Below, piece by piece: positions 34,274-55,763 of a DNA stretch of 64,000 nt (within the stretch, counting starts at the first letter, position 1; each line of letters begins with the position of its first letter). A model generated the notes under the pieces. That model did not search any database. It was not told the DNA's origin and saw nothing but the letters and a program-made list of their open reading frames with translations. The translations under genes and the position numbers were made by a program. Source of the stretch: Shigella phage Moonfish; the sequence record PQ613263; one strand, written 5' to 3'.

Positions 34274-34578
34274 TATTCCCCCTTAGGAACCATGTTTGCT
34301 TGGAACTCTGGTTCAGACATTAGACCCAGATTGTTAATAGACAGATAAACAATGTCTTTTAAATCAACTGAGGTGTCGAAACGCTGGTCCAGACTAATCT
34401 TCAAGGAATGGTTGGCACGGGCCAAATCTTTGTAGGTCACATGAGGTTCGTCAGTGAGCAGCATTGTGTTCATGGTAAGCAGGGAACCATCATCAGCTTT
34501 AGGAAGCTGGAAGATTACCTGTGCTGCTACCATCCAATGATATTTTCTGACAACGGTTTCTTTAGTACTTTTAGTCAT
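34273..34578 (-). CDS. Hypothetical protein
   Basis: 101-aa ORF, start/stop overlap with neighbours. Confidence 0.3.
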   Translation of the reverse strand: MTKSTKETVVRKYHWMVAAQVIFQLPKADDGSLLTMNTMLLTDEPHVTYKDLARANHSLKISLDQRFDTSVDLKDIVYLSINNLGLMSEPEFQANMVPKGE

Positions 34579-35498
34579 GCGAATGCCTTTTGAATTATTT
34601 GATGAACTTCTTCAGGGGTAGCGTGATTTGGAATCTCAATCTCGTTAGCCCACGTTGGGTAGAACAAGGACAGTTCCCCACCCAAACCAACTTCTGGATG
34701 AGCAATATCAGGATGGTCTTGCCAGTTAACGGCTTCAACCAAATGCTTGTTCGTGTACTGCAAGGTATCCATGTTGTCACGAATCATGAAGTACTGAGCA
34801 TCATGAATGTGAATACTAGGACGAATATCTAACCTGAACTCACTGGCTCTAACTTTACGCATAAACTCCGAGCCAGCACGGTTATTCAGTAGGCACCAGC
34901 TTTGCCCTAAGGCATTACCAGCAGTTCTACCTTCAGCTTCTGCTTCATATGGAGTCTTACATGTCCCACGTAAAACCTGAGCCAGTAAAGGAGTACGCAC
35001 TCTCAAACCAAATGCAGCAGTTACATAACCAGTCTTGGCAGCTTCGTCTAGCTTAGCCTGAACCCAAGCATCACTAACTACATAAAGGTCGTGATAACGT
35101 TTCTCTGTGAGCTTTGCTTTCTCTTCCGAGAAGCCACAGTTCTTCATTAAGCCCATATACGTACCACCATAGGTAAGCAGGAAGGTTGGAGCCTTCGAGT
35201 CACCTCGTAATGATTTGTATTTGTGCTGGATGGAGTTGATGGATTCAACCGTATCTACAATGTCTGGCATCTGCTCACCGAAGTAAGCATACGCACGAAG
35301 ACTGTGCCCATCATAACCATCGGTATATACCTTAAGTTTCTGGGGGTCTTTCGTAGTCAATGCAGAGATACGGTCTTCAAGGCTTGCAAAGTCCAGTCCA
35401 CAAAATATCCAACCTGGGGGTGCTTCGAAGCATTTCTTAATCTTCTTGGCATATTTGGAACCACTAGGGATGGTCTGTAGATTCCTGATGTTCAGCAT
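34575..35498 (-). CDS. DNA polymerase, family A, C-terminal part (downstream exon or fragment)
   Basis: Contains NLQTIP, the second half of the conserved PolA motif RLSSSDPNLQNIP, and a motif-C-like IHIHDAQ. Confidence 0.65.
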   Translation of the reverse strand: MLNIRNLQTIPSGSKYAKKIKKCFEAPPGWIFCGLDFASLEDRISALTTKDPQKLKVYTDGYDGHSLRAYAYFGEQMPDIVDTVESINSIQHKYKSLRGDSKAPTFLLTYGGTYMGLMKNCGFSEEKAKLTEKRYHDLYVVSDAWVQAKLDEAAKTGYVTAAFGLRVRTPLLAQVLRGTCKTPYEAEAEGRTAGNALGQSWCLLNNRAGSEFMRKVRASEFRLDIRPSIHIHDAQYFMIRDNMDTLQYTNKHLVEAVNWQDHPDIAHPEVGLGGELSLFYPTWANEIEIPNHATPEEVHQIIQKAFA

Positions 35499-35561
35499 GG
35501 GTCGTTAATCCATGCCCGTCTTTCGACTGCTGCATATTCCTATGCAGAGCAGACTATATCA

Positions 35562-36095
35562 TCACGCCAGATAGTAAGGCGTGCCATGCGCTTCCACCCA
35601 CTTGAGTGTACTCTCTTTCGAGATAGTCGTTGCACCTTTCAATGCTGCGTGTAACCGAGCGTGGTCAGGAACACTTAGCAATACAAGATTATCAAAGTCG
35701 TTGTTATACGGATTCTCATCACAATGATGCACACACCAGCCTTTTGGTATTTCACTGATATTAAGTGCCTCACATACTACCACATGGTGAGCAAAAACGT
35801 GTTTACTGCCTTTGCGTGCAGTATACCAATCCGGTTTAAGTACCATTAAGTAACCTTTACTGTCGGATACTAAACCTTTGTAGTTATGATGGTCTTTCCC
35901 AAATTTACCTAGCATGGGGTTATTTTCCCCCAGCTTGGAGCGTCGGTAAGACTTTGCATTTCTGTTTTGACGGTATTCTTTACTGTAGTTCTCCATAATA
36001 TATTTAGAGACTTTTTTGTAATTAATACCTAAACGCTTTGATATTTCTGCTTGAGATAGGTCAGTATTCTCGTACAGAGTCTTGATATCCATCAT
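35562..36095 (-). CDS. HNH homing endonuclease inserted in the DNA polymerase gene
   Basis: HNH core HHVVVCEALN...CVHHCDENPYNNDFDNLVLL...DHARLH; own RBS TAGGAGG; lies between the two polymerase pieces. Confidence 0.6.
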   Translation of the reverse strand: MMDIKTLYENTDLSQAEISKRLGINYKKVSKYIMENYSKEYRQNRNAKSYRRSKLGENNPMLGKFGKDHHNYKGLVSDSKGYLMVLKPDWYTARKGSKHVFAHHVVVCEALNISEIPKGWCVHHCDENPYNNDFDNLVLLSVPDHARLHAALKGATTISKESTLKWVEAHGTPYYLA

Positions 36096-36168
36096 GTGCC
36101 TCCTAAGGCAGGTATGGTTGATTTGGCTCAGGATTGCCCGGTCTGGGTTTCCCCTGAATTCACATGGT

Positions 36169-37860
36169 TTAAATAGCCCAATTTATTTTAGGCTCTGAAG
36201 CCGATAACCTGCCGGAGACCGTGCCTCCCAAATTGAGATTACCGAACAGATAGTGCCAGCCATCCGGTCCCGGTTGGGCGTTCCTGAAAGCTGGTATAAA
36301 GCTAGTAATAATCTTATCCACGAGCTTATAGTCGATAAGAGCATTGAGCAGTTCCTTAACATCTTCACTCTGCGTATGTGTACGCAGTGCTTTAATAGTG
36401 TCACCATCAGTAGCTGGTTGCTTGCTCTTAGTAAGACCAAGAACTGGTAAGCCAATAAAATCAAATAACAATTTCTGTAACTGTGGACCGGAGTTAGGAT
36501 TGAACTCGATGTCACAATCAGCCAATGTTACCTGCTTCTTCTTAAGCTTGGTATTCTTATCGTCTACCCATTCCTGACGAAGCATCAGGGTGAAATTCTT
36601 CATGAGCTTAGACTCACGAATAGTTTTCAGAGCCTGGTTCCTGTCAGTTTCCATTTCCTCAGCTACTTGGTTAACGGTTTCCATATTCATTGGCATACCG
36701 GTTAACTGCATCTGAATAATGTCTTCACAGGCAGGTTTAAAGATGTTGTTATAAACATCCAGTTGGTCATCAGCAATGAGAGTATCCCAGTGCTTCTCGT
36801 AGGTGTACCACGTACACAGTCCATCGATTAGGTTGTAGCGTAACAATTGCTCATTAGGAATAAGACAAATGTCTTTGATATCGTCTTGAGCATAGTTACC
36901 GGCATACTCCTGAGCCTGGTCTTTCAGACTAAGGTGATTACCAGCACAACTGTTAGTAGCCAGATAAGTGATTAACTTAGTGCAGTCCCAGTTACGTAGC
37001 ATGACGTTCATGCCATACAGTAGACCTTCTGTATCAATCAGGTTATCCATGAATAACTGATAGATAAGTACATACACGTCATAGCTAATGTTGTGATACA
37101 TCTGCCGTTGGGTGTACTTAATGAAGAACTCACGTAACAGGTTACGGACAATATCATTTCTGTTGATACGCCCATAAGGTGCTTCAGTAGCTCCCTTAAT
37201 TGGCTCGTAGTCCACATTAAAAGCTATGCCTTGTGTCTTACTCCAACAGAATGTAATCGTTCCTATACCGGCGTTATAGTGCTTTAAACCGAATGATTCG
37301 ATGTCTATAGCCAATGGCTTATTCATCTCCAGCAACTGGTCTAGCCAGGCTTTAATCTCTTCGGGGGTATCTGGGTAGGCCTCAAACTCAATGATTCCCT
37401 GACCTGGTTCAGCATACTGTCCACGTATGTGGTTAAGTAGTGCATCCATACCCTGAGCAATTTTAGCTCTCACTACAGGTGGGTCATAAAAGACCTGTCT
37501 GTAGTTAGGCGTATAGATAACCTTCTGCTTACCCCATACTGAGTCACAAACGTAGCCGAGGTTGGCCTCTGCTTTAGCTTCTTTAGTCAGTATTTTAAAG
37601 TAATCAGAATCGGTACAGATGACGTACTGAGTTTCTGCATCATCCAGTACTTGTTGCAGTTCCTGCTGTATGAACTCCTTAATCTCCTTTGCAGGAGTCT
37701 TCTTTTTGCCGGGGGCAGAGTGAAGTTCAAGGAAGATAAAATCTTCCATGCTTAGGTCATATGGCAGCAGGTAGGTTTTAATCATCTCCTCCCTTCGGAT
37801 TTGATGACCGAGGATAGCAATAGGATATTTACCCGTATCCTGAGAGGTGATGTAACGCAT
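36169..37860 (-). CDS. DNA polymerase, family A, N-terminal part (3'-5' exonuclease and start of the polymerase domain)
   Basis: Exo I motif LAIDIESFG; ORF ends inside SGRLSASEP, the first half of the PolA motif. Confidence 0.7.
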   Translation of the reverse strand: MRYITSQDTGKYPIAILGHQIRREEMIKTYLLPYDLSMEDFIFLELHSAPGKKKTPAKEIKEFIQQELQQVLDDAETQYVICTDSDYFKILTKEAKAEANLGYVCDSVWGKQKVIYTPNYRQVFYDPPVVRAKIAQGMDALLNHIRGQYAEPGQGIIEFEAYPDTPEEIKAWLDQLLEMNKPLAIDIESFGLKHYNAGIGTITFCWSKTQGIAFNVDYEPIKGATEAPYGRINRNDIVRNLLREFFIKYTQRQMYHNISYDVYVLIYQLFMDNLIDTEGLLYGMNVMLRNWDCTKLITYLATNSCAGNHLSLKDQAQEYAGNYAQDDIKDICLIPNEQLLRYNLIDGLCTWYTYEKHWDTLIADDQLDVYNNIFKPACEDIIQMQLTGMPMNMETVNQVAEEMETDRNQALKTIRESKLMKNFTLMLRQEWVDDKNTKLKKKQVTLADCDIEFNPNSGPQLQKLLFDFIGLPVLGLTKSKQPATDGDTIKALRTHTQSEDVKELLNALIDYKLVDKIITSFIPAFRNAQPGPDGWHYLFGNLNLGGTVSGRLSASEPKINWAI

Positions 37861-52994: not shown

Positions 52995-53222
52995 TTAACT
53001 TAATGCATAATCCGTTTCAAGAATGTCCTGCCAGAGGCTGTCATCCAGCTTACCCGCAGAGAACTCTTGTCCCAGTACCTGAGATAGGATGAAGCCCAGC
53101 AAGTCACTCTTAGCAATGTCAGATAGAATCTGATTGTACTGACGACGTAGGTCATTACCATAGTTAGGATGACAACGAAAACCATTAGTTAAACGAGTCG
53201 TTAGCTCGCCCTTACCTTCCAT
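52995..53222 (-). CDS. RNA polymerase II large subunit, C-terminal segment (downstream exon or fragment)
   Basis: Ends WQDILETDYALS, resembling the T7 RNAP C-terminus LRDILESDFAFA; overlaps the HNH ORF stop. Confidence 0.5.
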   Translation of the reverse strand: MEGKGELTTRLTNGFRCHPNYGNDLRRQYNQILSDIAKSDLLGFILSQVLGQEFSAGKLDDSLWQDILETDYALS

Positions 53223-53856
53223 GATTAACATGAAAGCCATATGTAGCATCTGCTTGTTTACGAGCAAGCATTGCCTCCTCAAGTGTGTCGTACGTACCCA
53301 GACCGATCTGTTTGCGATTGACTGTGATGTGTGCCTGAAATCTACCAGAAGGCAGTATTCTCACACCGTTCACTTTGCTTGAAGTATTACTAGATAAACT
53401 CATATTCATCTGGTTCTGTCTGCTGGTTACATTTCTCAAATTAGACCAACGATTGTCGTTTCTAGTATGATTGATGTGGTCCACCTGGTTAGGTGTTTCC
53501 CCAGTTTCCATTATCCAGATTATTCGATGTAGTAAGTACTCTTTGCGGCCCAGGCTAACGGATAGATACCCTTCTTTGTGAGGATACCCCACAATTGTTC
53601 CGGCTAACCCACTGGCAGAGTCATAACGATGAGTCACTAGCCCACTATCCCTGTCATACCTTAAAACCTTCTGCAAAGATTCTTGGGTAATATTACCCAA
53701 GTTTATTATTAGGTTTTTACAGGTAGAGCATAGATGACCTATTGGACTCTTTCTAGCATCATAGAAGTTACAAACAAACTCATTAGAGCATTGCTTGCAA
53801 CTACAGATAGCTGTGTACTTACCAGTTTTACGTAATATTTGAGAGTTATCTAACAT
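53212..53856 (-). CDS. HNH-AP2 homing endonuclease inserted in the RNA polymerase II large-subunit gene
   Basis: HNH motif HRIIWIMETGETPNQVDHINHTRNDNRWSNL plus AP2-like NGVRILPSGRFQAHITVNRKQIGLGTYDTLEEA; own RBS. Confidence 0.6.
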   Translation of the reverse strand: MLDNSQILRKTGKYTAICSCKQCSNEFVCNFYDARKSPIGHLCSTCKNLIINLGNITQESLQKVLRYDRDSGLVTHRYDSASGLAGTIVGYPHKEGYLSVSLGRKEYLLHRIIWIMETGETPNQVDHINHTRNDNRWSNLRNVTSRQNQMNMSLSSNTSSKVNGVRILPSGRFQAHITVNRKQIGLGTYDTLEEAMLARKQADATYGFHVNHGR

Positions 53857-54148
53857 ATGGATTCCTTAGTAATTTTGCATACAATTTCAGATTGTATCCT
53901 AACCAAGGAAGTAAGTCTCCAATTTTCACTGGAGTATCGGACTATATCATCACCCACTAATCAGTGGGGCAAGGCGCTTGGGTGGTCACTTGACTCACCT
54001 ACTCTACTCACATACGAAATGCTTTCGATAGTCTCTGAACCTTCCCTCATAGAGGGCTTGGCTGCTGATTGGCATATCCATAGGACTTAGCTTTCCAGCA
54101 ATTCACCTTGTTTTCGACACGGATTACTCCGTGAAGGATCATTTATGT

Positions 54149-55180
54149 TTAATCATGTACAGTCAATACAGGGAATGGCTTCTTAGGTAAAGTGTCCAGC
54201 ATGTCTGCTACTACCTGACGGTCAACCATAGCAATAGTGCCTGGGTCGAGATAGTCGATAATAGACATAGATAAGAATCCAGACTTCTCGTAGTGTTCCC
54301 ACAAGGTCTGTACCATTTCCATGTTACCTTCAATCTCCCCATACTCTGCTGGGCCTGTGTCGCAGAGTTCACGAACAGCAGCAACCAGGTTAGCATCGAA
54401 GTTACAACGACGCAGCATCTCGCGTACCACCATCCCATCAATAGAGTGGGTGATGTTAGCAGAGAGCATACGAGTCTTCTCTTCAGTACCCTGAACCATG
54501 CGGGTAATGTCGAATGGTTTACCTAAGAAGTTAACAGTCTGTACTTCTGGAACCATGACCTTAATGACGGCATGGAAGTTGTCAGACAATACCCATACGT
54601 AACGGTTAGCATCCGGGTTACCACATTGCAGTAAGAACTTGTTCAATGCCCAAGGCCCACTAGCAACAGTTTCCATTACATTCTCAAAAGTCTTGAGACG
54701 GATACCCTCACCGAATACTTCTTTAGGCTTAGCTTCTGAACCGTAGAATGCAGTCATAACTGCCTGCTTAGTGTCACTACGCTTAATACGAGATGCTTCA
54801 CCAAGGATGTCCAACATCTTGTGATAGATAACTGTATAAGCATCACGACGTAATGGCTTACCGTTTTCACCCATGTAGTTAACTACGTTACACAGTTCAG
54901 CAGCAGAACGGTCACCAGTCAGGCAAGCCAGTAACTGCAAGCCTGATGATGTAGCATCCAGAGCTACGGCATAGCCAATAGGCTTACCGGCTTTCATATC
55001 TTTCCATGCGTTTACACCTGCATAGAACAATGCGGATTCTTCAGCTTCATCTACCAGATTAAGCAGGTTAGCTTCGTTTTCATCGAACCAGCTAATACGT
55101 TCATCCCATGTTTTCTTATCCAGACCCATGTTATTCGCAATATCAATCTTTAAATATTCTTTCGCTGTGAAAAGCTGCAT
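54149..55180 (-). CDS. T7-like single-subunit RNA polymerase, N4 RNAP II large subunit (gp16-like), N-terminal segment ending at motif C
   Basis: Motif A ALDATSSGLQ (T7 DGSCSGIQ), motif B RSDTKQAVMTAFYGSE (T7 RSVTKRSVMTLAYGSK); ORF stops right after VHD (T7 motif C IHDSFG). Confidence 0.7.
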   Translation of the reverse strand: MQLFTAKEYLKIDIANNMGLDKKTWDERISWFDENEANLLNLVDEAEESALFYAGVNAWKDMKAGKPIGYAVALDATSSGLQLLACLTGDRSAAELCNVVNYMGENGKPLRRDAYTVIYHKMLDILGEASRIKRSDTKQAVMTAFYGSEAKPKEVFGEGIRLKTFENVMETVASGPWALNKFLLQCGNPDANRYVWVLSDNFHAVIKVMVPEVQTVNFLGKPFDITRMVQGTEEKTRMLSANITHSIDGMVVREMLRRCNFDANLVAAVRELCDTGPAEYGEIEGNMEMVQTLWEHYEKSGFLSMSIIDYLDPGTIAMVDRQVVADMLDTLPKKPFPVLTVHD

Positions 55181-55181
55181 C

Positions 55182-55763
55182 TTAAGCTCCTAGTTTCCAC
55201 GTATAGCCATATGCTTGTGCATATGTACCAATAATTGATTGTTTAATGTTTGATGGTATTCCATTTACACTGCGTGCTGCTGCACTCAGTGAATGGAATG
55301 TCTGGATGTAAATACCATCCAGTGTGTATTGCTCTACAGGGATAGCAGATTTGGTATTAATACCGTTGATTGCATCAGAGTAATACCTTCTTACATTGGC
55401 GTTTACCGTAACAACACGAATGTTATCCAGTGAGTAACCTTTATAGTCATCCAGCCTGTCAAGGCTTGGCTTCAGGTTGGTTGGGTAATCCTCTATTACC
55501 CATTTATCATACAGAGTGTGAAACTCTTTCTTTGATAACACCCATTGTTCTAGTTCCTCTTTAGTAAAAGTAACAGGATTAAACCCTTTCTTCTTGGTTC
55601 TGCTTACGCAACCGGAGTACATTTGATTAATGACTCCTTGTTTGGAATGGATAAAACGTTTCACACAGTCTTTACAGTCTGCTCTTACACCCTGTTTACC
55701 TGTGGACTGTTTATTGAACATGTCCAGAGGCAAGTTCTGCTTACATACTGAACATGTCTTCAT
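55182..55763 (-). CDS. Putative homing-endonuclease-like DNA-binding protein (Cys-rich N-terminus, NUMOD-like HTH C-terminus)
   Basis: CSVCKQ...CKDC at N-terminus; C-terminal FHSLSAAARSVNGIPSNIKQSIIG...GYTWK; stop/start within 1-3 nt of both neighbours. Confidence 0.35.
   Translation of the reverse strand: MKTCSVCKQNLPLDMFNKQSTGKQGVRADCKDCVKRFIHSKQGVINQMYSGCVSRTKKKGFNPVTFTKEELEQWVLSKKEFHTLYDKWVIEDYPTNLKPSLDRLDDYKGYSLDNIRVVTVNANVRRYYSDAINGINTKSAIPVEQYTLDGIYIQTFHSLSAAARSVNGIPSNIKQSIIGTYAQAYGYTWKLGA

Follow-up and report, generated by a model that had tools for sequence, protein, structure and literature searches.

One of the closest described systems to the locus reported here is the DNA polymerase intron of Pf-WMP3, a T7-like cyanophage. 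This intron belongs to subgroup IA2 of the group I introns, lacks P2 and interrupts its gene between the Pro and Asn codons that also flank the element described below (PMC3428280). It splices both in vivo and in vitro (Kong et al. 2012, PMC3428280), and its guanosine-dependent self-splicing is established (PMC3428280). The polymerase introns of the Bacillus phages SPO1, SP82 and Bastille, associated with I-HmuI, I-HmuII and I-BasI respectively, occupy the same position (PMC3428280), which is site 674 in Escherichia coli Pol I numbering. Further known introns are the DNA polymerase intron of Xanthomonas phage phiL7 (Lee et al. 2009, as cited in PMC3428280) and the introns of PhiI and W31 (Bonocora and Shub 2004), which served as the structural model in PMC3428280. 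The hallmark of subgroup IA2 is the presence of two extra helices, P7.1 and P7.2, located between P7 and P3' and joined by G-U-A (PMC3428280).

Closer still in sequence, the Escherichia phages vB_EcoP_PhAPEC5 and PhAPEC7 (KF192075 and KF562340) belong to the same genus as Shigella phage Moonfish and carry an insert in the same gene, at the same insertion point, that is 96% identical to that of Moonfish over all 706 nt. Their GenBank records already bear the annotations 'DNAP split by an intron' and 'HNH endonuclease inducing intron mobility'; a literature search on the structure or splicing of the PhAPEC5/PhAPEC7 intron found no description. The Moonfish intron is a real, already known kind of mobile element, with a near-identical copy annotated in these two sister phages. 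The records give an intron of 672 bp, which is near the 670-nt gap between the called ORFs, whereas the splice boundaries give 706 nt, and this length should replace the annotated one. Judged from its sequence and predicted fold, the Moonfish insert is very probably a mobile IA2 group I intron. It lies in the polymerase gene of an N4-like coliphage (Gamaleyavirus) of the G7C-like kind, and the predicted spliced product is 859 aa long.

In the window analysed (a 64,000-nt stretch of Moonfish DNA, sequence record PQ613263), the family A DNA polymerase gene (N4 gp39 type, Gamaleyavirus) lies on the minus strand and is interrupted by the 706-nt insert after the Pro codon of ...RLSASEP|NLQTIP.... 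Exon 1 (36190..37860, minus strand) consists of 557 codons and ends with ...RLSASEP. The ORF that contains it (37860..36169, minus strand, 563 aa) continues past ...SGRLSASEP for six extra codons (KINWAI) before reaching a stop. Exon 2 (34575..35483, minus strand) starts with NLQTIP and consists of 302 codons and a stop; the corresponding ORF (35498..34575, minus strand, 307 aa) opens with MLNIR and proceeds directly to NLQTIP. The assignment of both exons is based on the ORF list, Pfam and alignment with G7C. Both halves are matches to Pfam DNA_pol_A, over neighbouring stretches of the profile (positions 12-128 and 127-303). Phage G7C has an uninterrupted gp39, with which the joined exons align colinearly and with no gap at the junction; their length is exactly that of the G7C gene, 2580 nt.

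The last base of exon 1 is U 36190, the third base of a CCU codon, and exon 2 begins with AAU at 35483. The spliced junction RNA would read ...GAGCCU|AAUCUA..., and the junction peptide of the joined polymerase would be LSASEPNLQTIPSGSK. The intron-less g39 of G7C reads ...TCAGAGCCA|AATCTACAA... around the insertion site. A sequence-only reading of this DNA had described a polymerase broken within a conserved motif by an HNH gene, had placed the splice junctions after CCT (Pro) and before AAT (Asn), and had remarked that the upstream piece ends in U and the 706-nt segment in G. Each of these features was found, with the genes on the minus strand, and the junctions proved correct when the joined exons were set against G7C gp39, which also supplies the comparison with an intact polymerase of a related N4-like phage that the reading had proposed and fixes the insertion point. 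A second group I intron is present in the RNA polymerase 2 gene of the same window.

The insert (35484..36189, minus strand) displays the full architecture of a subgroup IA2 intron, comprising P1, P10 and P3-P9, including P7.1 and P7.2, and ending in the terminal omega G at 35484. This assignment draws on partial matches to Rfam RF00028, a hand-built structure with covariation and the precise absence of the insert from G7C. P1 is formed by the internal guide sequence GGGCU (36175..36179, minus strand), which pairs with the exon sequence AGCCU (36194..36190) and places a U·G pair at the splice site, while P10 is formed by AUU (36182..36180), adjacent to the guide, and the first exon 2 bases AAU. 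The 5' ribozyme core (36096..36189, minus strand) contains P1', P3, P4, P5, P4', P6 and the 5' strand of P6a, together with a hairpin (36110..36097, minus strand) in which the HNH ORF has its Shine-Dalgarno sequence. The 3' ribozyme core (35484..35644, minus strand) contains P6a', P6', P7, P7.1, P7.2, P3', P8, P7', P9, P9.1 and P9.2. The P7 strands are GACUAU (35628..35623) and AUAGUC (P7', 35557..35552), and the segment characteristic of IA2 takes the form of P7.1 (CUC-GAAA-GAG), A-GUA and P7.2 (CACUC-AAGU-GGGUG), with both helices covarying. Sequence outside the ORF amounts to 94 + 78 = 172 nt, in agreement with the earlier estimate of about 170 nt, but the accompanying remark that this is short for a group I core does not stand. 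The HNH ORF and the 3' core share 83 nt, the last of the former and the first of the latter, which double as P6a', P6', P7, P7.1, P7.2, P3' and P8, and because the 3' end of the ORF also encodes core helices, the core totals approximately 255 nt.

At its gathering threshold of 50 bits, Rfam does not report the Moonfish intron, the best piece of which scores 33 bits. In a permissive scan with RF00028 this score (E 8.6e-6) falls on the 3' core, and a further 14 bits on the P4-P6 region. The copy remains below threshold because the 534-nt ORF sits inside P6a; related introns that have no ORF score 69.7-84.7 bits. Covariation was assessed for 58 pairs in P3-P9.2 across 17 related introns, which were aligned without reference to structure. 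Base-pair cells are paired in 97.6% of cases, compared with 28-40% when the pairing register is slid, a control in which the structure has an advantage as it was built from the Moonfish sequence itself. Compensatory double changes occur in 33 of the 58 pairs, and the covariation score of 0.474 compares with 0.05-0.09 in controls and is attained by none of 500 shuffles. P7 is invariant across the introns compared and so is uninformative for covariation. Across four different exon contexts, changes in the exon are matched by changes in the guide, the U·G pair is kept in all 13 introns (13/13), and the minimum-energy fold of the core has a z of -3.9. The exact junctions, the covarying IA2 core, the ORF-less relatives above the Rfam threshold and the splicing homologue in Pf-WMP3 all support the group I intron that the sequence-only reading had put forward.

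Divergence between Moonfish and PhAPEC5 is unevenly distributed. It is 0-1.3% in the core (0 differences in the 94 nt of the 5' core and 2 in the 161 nt of the 3' core), 5.5% and mostly synonymous in the part that is ORF only, and 7-9% in the exons. In a check for co-conversion, the sequence immediately after the junction is somewhat more divergent from PhAPEC5, with other parts of exon 2 equally divergent. The conservation of the core bears on whether the element might be a decayed group I intron, the self-splicing of which is now inefficient, leaving the phage to depend on low-level splicing or on help from a factor of its own or of the host. P1 and P10 do have only 5 bp and 3 bp respectively, as such decay might predict; however, the same 5-bp P1 is found in the intron of Shigella phage B2, every core helix is intact in the Moonfish copy, the core is near-identical in the two sister phages despite the 7-9% divergence of the exons, and the DNA polymerase is essential. 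Decay is, on this evidence, extremely unlikely.

The HNH homing endonuclease gene (35562..36095, minus strand, 177 aa) lies in the P6a loop. The sequence-only reading had recognised it as a complete ORF with its own ribosome-binding site, and AGGAGG is indeed found 5 nt before the ATG. Its product consists of an N-terminal helix-turn-helix and a C-terminal HNH domain, the latter matching Pfam HNH_3 over residues 104-147 with 31.5 bits against a cut-off of 24.8. The protein is 45% identical to I-PfoP3I (E 3e-44), 59% to P45 of phiL7 and 62% to gp15 of Shigella phage B2, and endonuclease activity is predicted by homology to I-PfoP3I. Comparison with the PhAPEC5 gene finds 26 codons that differ and only 5 amino acids, a pattern of substitution indicative of purifying selection on the ORF. 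When the HNH protein was searched against the sequences of solved structures, nothing significant was returned, the best match (E 0.83) being to an unrelated protein, and I-HmuI (PDB 1U3E) was absent from the matches. Inteins at conserved polymerase motifs can also contain homing endonucleases, but an intein or programmed read-through is excluded here, as a stop follows after six codons of the insert in the exon 1 frame, and the HNH ORF, which has its own start and ribosome-binding site, is joined in frame to neither half of the polymerase.

That both polymerase halves are open, and that the second has an initial ATG, would also fit an arrangement in which a homing endonuclease cassette has split the polymerase into ORFs of 563 aa and 307 aa that are translated separately and form a two-chain enzyme without splicing; the sequence-only reading had retained separately translated halves as its alternative. 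There is precedent within the phage group, as the g39 insert of the related phage 10Gb gave two polypeptides and no spliced RNA (bioRxiv 10.1101/542787), and other Gamaleyavirus g39 inserts (the SP5M and ST4 types), located at other sites, are devoid of any group I signal. Such an arrangement is nevertheless very unlikely for Moonfish, since it accounts neither for the presence of a complete covarying group I core nor for the much stronger conservation of this RNA core compared with the coding sequence on either side. The ATG at 35498 sits in helix P9.2, and this C-fragment start is not conserved in relatives that carry an insert at the same site. Its anti-Shine-Dalgarno pairing is weak (-3.5 kcal/mol, compared with -12.3 kcal/mol for the SP5M-type C-fragment start), although Shine-Dalgarno strength discriminates poorly, the genuine polymerase start itself having only -3.9 kcal/mol.

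The 10Gb insert is approximately 800 bp long, lies at G7C coordinate ~25420 and contains a homing-nuclease ORF; its C-fragment ATG is reported to be preceded by a Shine-Dalgarno sequence, and it gave no Rfam hit (bioRxiv 10.1101/542787). It shares its gene and phage group with the Moonfish insert, but what is reported of it agrees with inserts of the ST4 or SP5M type rather than with that of Moonfish. Compared by the coordinate in supplementary Table S1 of the preprint, position 25420 is nearer to the sites of the ST4 (25387) or SP5M (25483) inserts than to the Moonfish site (25325). Inserts of the SP5M and ST4 types have no Rfam match even at E <= 1. A free-standing cassette is distinguished by having no ribozyme core, and the Moonfish insert contains a full one. 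The Moonfish insert could in principle be the non-splicing element of 10Gb, with a two-chain polymerase and a ribozyme fold kept for a purpose such as homing or control of endonuclease expression, but this is regarded as highly improbable.

If the insert is a mobile IA2 intron, as preferred here, the intron RNA would fold after transcription into a P1-P10 ribozyme, and an external guanosine would attack after U 36190. The exons would then be ligated and the intron released after G 35484, such that one 859-aa polymerase reading ...RLSASEP-NLQTIP... would be translated. Splicing of the Moonfish copy is thus predicted from its junctions and core. By homology to I-PfoP3I, the most likely role of the HNH product in mixed infection is to nick polymerase alleles that lack the intron, adjacent to its insertion site, and repair from the intron-carrying copy would spread the intron (homing). 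The conserved hairpin over the HNH ribosome-binding site probably limits HNH translation. Automatic gene callers overlook the intron and report the polymerase as two fragments; the product to annotate would be the one 859-aa polymerase from the spliced exons.

The Moonfish intron is visibly homologous to that of Pf-WMP3. The two have core sequence blocks in common, as well as a hairpin around the ribosome-binding site, and in both the HNH ORF begins in P6a and runs into P7-P7.2. The Pf-WMP3 intron is 672 nt long and lacks the P9.1 and P9.2 extensions found in Moonfish. The introns of Xanthomonas phage phiL7, Providencia PS3, Pseudomonas phiB1_1 and Dickeya BF25/12 belong to the same family, being 66-70% identical over 90-97% of their length. 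They interrupt the same polymerase motif, but at site 676 (PNL|Q), which is 6 nt downstream of the Moonfish site, and they use a retuned guide, GAGGUUG, in place of the Moonfish GGGCU. A same-family IA2 core, with an HNH ORF in P6a, is also found in the T7-like phages PhiI and W31 (I-TslI) and in Salmonella phage Vi06, where the introns are inserted at another polymerase motif (site 881, ...AKTF|IYGF...). The Moonfish element is one more case of a widespread lineage of IA2 introns with HNH genes that is aimed at the motif most strongly conserved among family A polymerases. This lineage has moved between T7-like and N4-like phages, and the Moonfish copy, whilst introducing no new principle, helps to trace that horizontal transfer.

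Judged from its sequence, the 706-nt insert (36189..35484, minus strand) in the family A DNA polymerase gene (N4 gp39 type, g39) is a genuine group I (IA2) intron that carries an I-PfoP3I-type HNH homing endonuclease gene, and it lies at a position where insertions into family A polymerase genes are already known. The sequence-only reading had called a group I intron, rightly, as the IA2 core, the exact junctions and a homologous intron at the same site indicate. The finding holds up but is not novel. All genes of 34575-37860 are on the minus strand, and the region shares 92-93% identity with G7C-like coliphages (Gamaleyavirus, Schitoviridae, N4-like), in most of which, G7C included, gp39 is uninterrupted; among these the insert is common only to the sister phages PhAPEC5 and PhAPEC7, in whose GenBank entries the 96%-identical copy already appears as 'DNAP split by an intron of 672bp' and its ORF as 'putative HNH endonuclease inducing intron mobility'.

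The first ORF (37860..36169, minus strand) consists of 557 polymerase codons to ...SGRLSASEP, six further codons and a stop; the second (36095..35562, minus strand) encodes a 177-aa protein, and the third (35498..34575, minus strand) starts with MLNIR, followed by NLQTIP. The outer two match adjoining positions of the Pfam DNA_pol_A profile (12-128 and 127-303), and the 177-aa protein has an HNH_3 match above the Pfam cut-off and weak N-terminal helix-turn-helix matches. The last exon 1 codon is CCU, at 36190, the final base of the insert is G and the first exon 2 codon is AAU, at 35483. The ORF ends, this junction, the 706-nt length with its terminal G and the complete HNH ORF are all as the sequence-only reading described them. 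Comparison with intact polymerase genes of relatives, which it had proposed, sets the insertion point: the joined exons align without a gap there to G7C gp39, and their length is exactly that of the G7C gene (2580 nt).

A permissive Rfam scan for RF00028 (group I intron; gathering score 50) has two minus-strand hits, one of 33 bits (E 8.6e-6) at 35804..35530 with a good fit to the R and S elements and P9, the other of 14 bits at 36157..36095, in the P4-P6 region; both scores fall below 50 because one helix holds the 534-nt ORF. A hand reading of the window sequence yields a full core with the ORF inside P6a, a peripheral placement that had been anticipated. P1 pairs exon AGCCU with guide GGGCU, with U·G at the splice site, and P10 pairs exon 2 AAU with the AUU adjoining the guide. 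The other helices are P3 (CCAUGUG/CGCAUGG), P4 (UCAGG/CCUGA), P5 (CCC/GGG), P6 (GCC/GGU), P6a (UCAA/UUGA, enclosing the ORF), P7 (GACUAU/AUAGUC), P7.1 (CUC-GAAA-GAG), P7.2 (CACUC-AAGU-GGGUG, with an A-GUA link to P7.1), P8 (CACGCC/GGCGUG), P9 (CUGCAUA-GGAA-UAUGCAG), P9.1 (GUC-GAAA-GAC) and P9.2 (GCAUGG/CCAUGC), followed by a short tail and the terminal G. IA2 introns are marked by P7.1 and P7.2 with a GUA link and by the lack of P2 (PMC3428280); the insert has P7.1-GUA-P7.2 and no P2. The final 83 nt of the HNH ORF (...ALKGATTISKESTLKWVEAHG...) double as P6a', P6', P7, P7.1, P7.2, P3' and P8, so the ribozyme core is about 255 nt, not 170, which removes the earlier reservation that some 170 non-ORF nt are short for a group I core. 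Nested-only energy folding of the core minus its ORF loop recovers P1, P3, P4, P5, P7.1, P8, P9 and P9.2 (z = -3.9).

Relatives of the intron sequence are found in 495 phage records, where polymerase, primase-helicase and RNA polymerase genes host ORF-less or differently loaded versions, the ORF-less members scoring 70-85 bits on RF00028. Seventeen cores were aligned with MAFFT, the contents of the P6a loop having been cut out beforehand, and the hand-assigned structure was counted on the alignment. Standard pairs occupy 97.6% of 977 cells, against 28-40% in slid versions whose 3' partners are offset by 1-3 columns, a control that favours the structure, which was derived from the window sequence itself. 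Both-sided changes, which are independent of that derivation, occur in 33 of 58 pairs, and the covariation score is 0.474 versus 0.05-0.09 in the slid versions; none of 500 shuffles reached the observed values. Covariation is heavy in P3, P5, P6a, P7.1, P8, P9.1 and P9.2, and P7 is unchanging. The guide changes with its exon partner (AGCCU/GGGCU in the window and phage B2; AAACCCU/GGGGUUU, CAACCUU/GAGGUUG and AGACGUU/GACGUCU in relatives), and the U·G pair is present in 13 of 13 introns with fixable junctions.

It is very improbable that the polymerase is instead made as two separately translated halves without splicing, although the G7C-like group holds a precedent: g39 of phage 10Gb, described by the laboratory that isolated G7C, has an insert of ~800 bp that includes a nuclease ORF, for which a spliced RT-PCR product was not seen and two polypeptides were found (bioRxiv 10.1101/542787). 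There the C-fragment ATG is preceded by a Shine-Dalgarno sequence, and the insert is placed at ~25420 in G7C coordinates (supplementary Table S1, bioRxiv 10.1101/542787). Compared by this published coordinate, the candidate sites are that of the window (25325, 706 nt), the ST4-type insert (25387, 849 nt) and the SP5M-type insert (25483, 702 nt, with GAGGAGG ahead of the C-terminal fragment ATG). In the window the downstream-ORF ATG lies within P9.2 and its anti-Shine-Dalgarno pairing is weak (-3.5 versus -12.3 kcal/mol for SP5M), a minor argument only, because pairing at the genuine polymerase start is just as weak (-3.9). Rfam searches of the ST4- and SP5M-type inserts gave no match even at E <= 1, and these therefore serve as an internal negative control of the method. 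The reading frames are incompatible with an intein.

The ST4-type insert (locus L004, 1516-2365, 849 nt) follows ~aa 578 of gp39 and is also found in PGN829.1, U1G and phi G17; the SP5M-type insert (locus L003, 1407-2109, 702 nt) follows ~aa 610, is also found in PD205 and has 77% relatives in VEc25-like phages. Both are endonuclease-bearing, belong to other Gamaleyaviruses and lie at sites different from the window's; a strong Shine-Dalgarno sequence precedes the C-terminal fragment of the SP5M type. They may be the counterpart of the non-splicing 10Gb insert.

Relative to PhAPEC5, the difference is 0% in the 5' core of the intron (94 nt), 1.2% in the ORF/core overlap (83 nt, one difference), 1.3% in the 3' core beyond the stop codon (78 nt, one difference), 5.5% in the ORF-only part (451 nt), 6.9% in exon 1 (1671 nt) and 9.4% in exon 2 (909 nt). 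Differences being lowest in the RNA core, this is under the strongest constraint, and purifying selection acts on the endonuclease, since the complete HNH ORF has 26 codon differences but only 5 amino-acid differences.

A second group I intron lies at 53183-54150 (minus strand) in the RNA polymerase 2 subunit A gene (N4 gp16 type), with 91 bits on RF00028 (threshold 50) and a core at 54160..53917. It splits the gene inside ...TVHD/CFRCHP...; exon 1 ends with U 54151 and exon 2 starts with G 53182, restoring the G7C gp16 sequence. Its 3' part contains an HNH_3 and AP2 ORF (53856..53212), followed by a P9.2-like hairpin and a terminal G. In the phage collection it recurs only in ZQ2 (91% identical over the query part covered by the ZQ2 record), whose annotation gives the gene as two 'RNA polymerase' CDSs. 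Phages N4G2 and Sz33 have a published, spliced g16 intron at QAVMTAFYGSEAK, a site other than this one. The two RNA polymerase 2 subunit genes are separated by a free-standing ORF (55182-55763, minus strand) whose 193-aa product has a NUMOD1 domain; it is the counterpart of G7C ORF15.1, 'putative HNH homing endonuclease'. A tRNA gene lies at 26821-26894 (minus strand; RF00005, 63.8 bits).

In cyanophage Pf-WMP3, a 672-bp IA2 intron that splices in vivo and in vitro separates Pro363 from Asn364 in the polymerase, at position 674 by E. coli Pol I numbering; the ORF for its HNH protein I-PfoP3I begins in P6a and extends across P7-P7.2, and the enzyme makes a nick in the intron-less gene 4 nt upstream of where the intron inserts (Kong et al. 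2012, PMC3428280). SPO1, SP82 and Bastille also use site 674, and phiL7 uses site 676 (PMC3428280). On inspection, the Pf-WMP3 insertion point (AAGCCU/AAC) is that of the window intron, and the two introns are alike in their core blocks and in the hairpin at the ribosome-binding site of the ORF; the window HNH protein is 45% identical to I-PfoP3I (E 3e-44) and 59% identical to phiL7 P45. The hairpin, UGCCU-UAGG-AGGCA (36097-36110, minus strand), contains the HNH ORF Shine-Dalgarno sequence, its stem covaries among relatives (UACCU/AGGUA, CGCCU/AGGCG, CACCU/AGGUG), and it probably restrains endonuclease translation.

Site 674 (P/NLQ) is occupied in the window, PhAPEC5/7, B2, Acinetobacter 4AB-P and KEN_02, Klebsiella RCIP0039, PPWS1 and Pf-WMP3, and site 676 (PNL/Q) in phiL7, Valrath, PS3, phiB1_1 and BF25/12; the two are 6 nt apart and used by closely related introns with homologous HNH genes and retuned guides. 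The KEN_02 polymerase gene (locus 1150-2400) has an ORF-less 239-nt intron copy at the P/N site and, further downstream and 3' of an HNH ORF, a second S-element (GATATAGTC), and so seems to hold two introns. Across the aligned relatives, similarities between site-674 and site-676 cores interleave, the window core (674) being 85% identical to that of Pseudomonas phiB1_1 (676) and only 78% to that of Shigella B2 (674). Such pairwise core similarities suggest repeated switching between the 674 and 676 sites and intron transfer between T7-like and N4-like phages.
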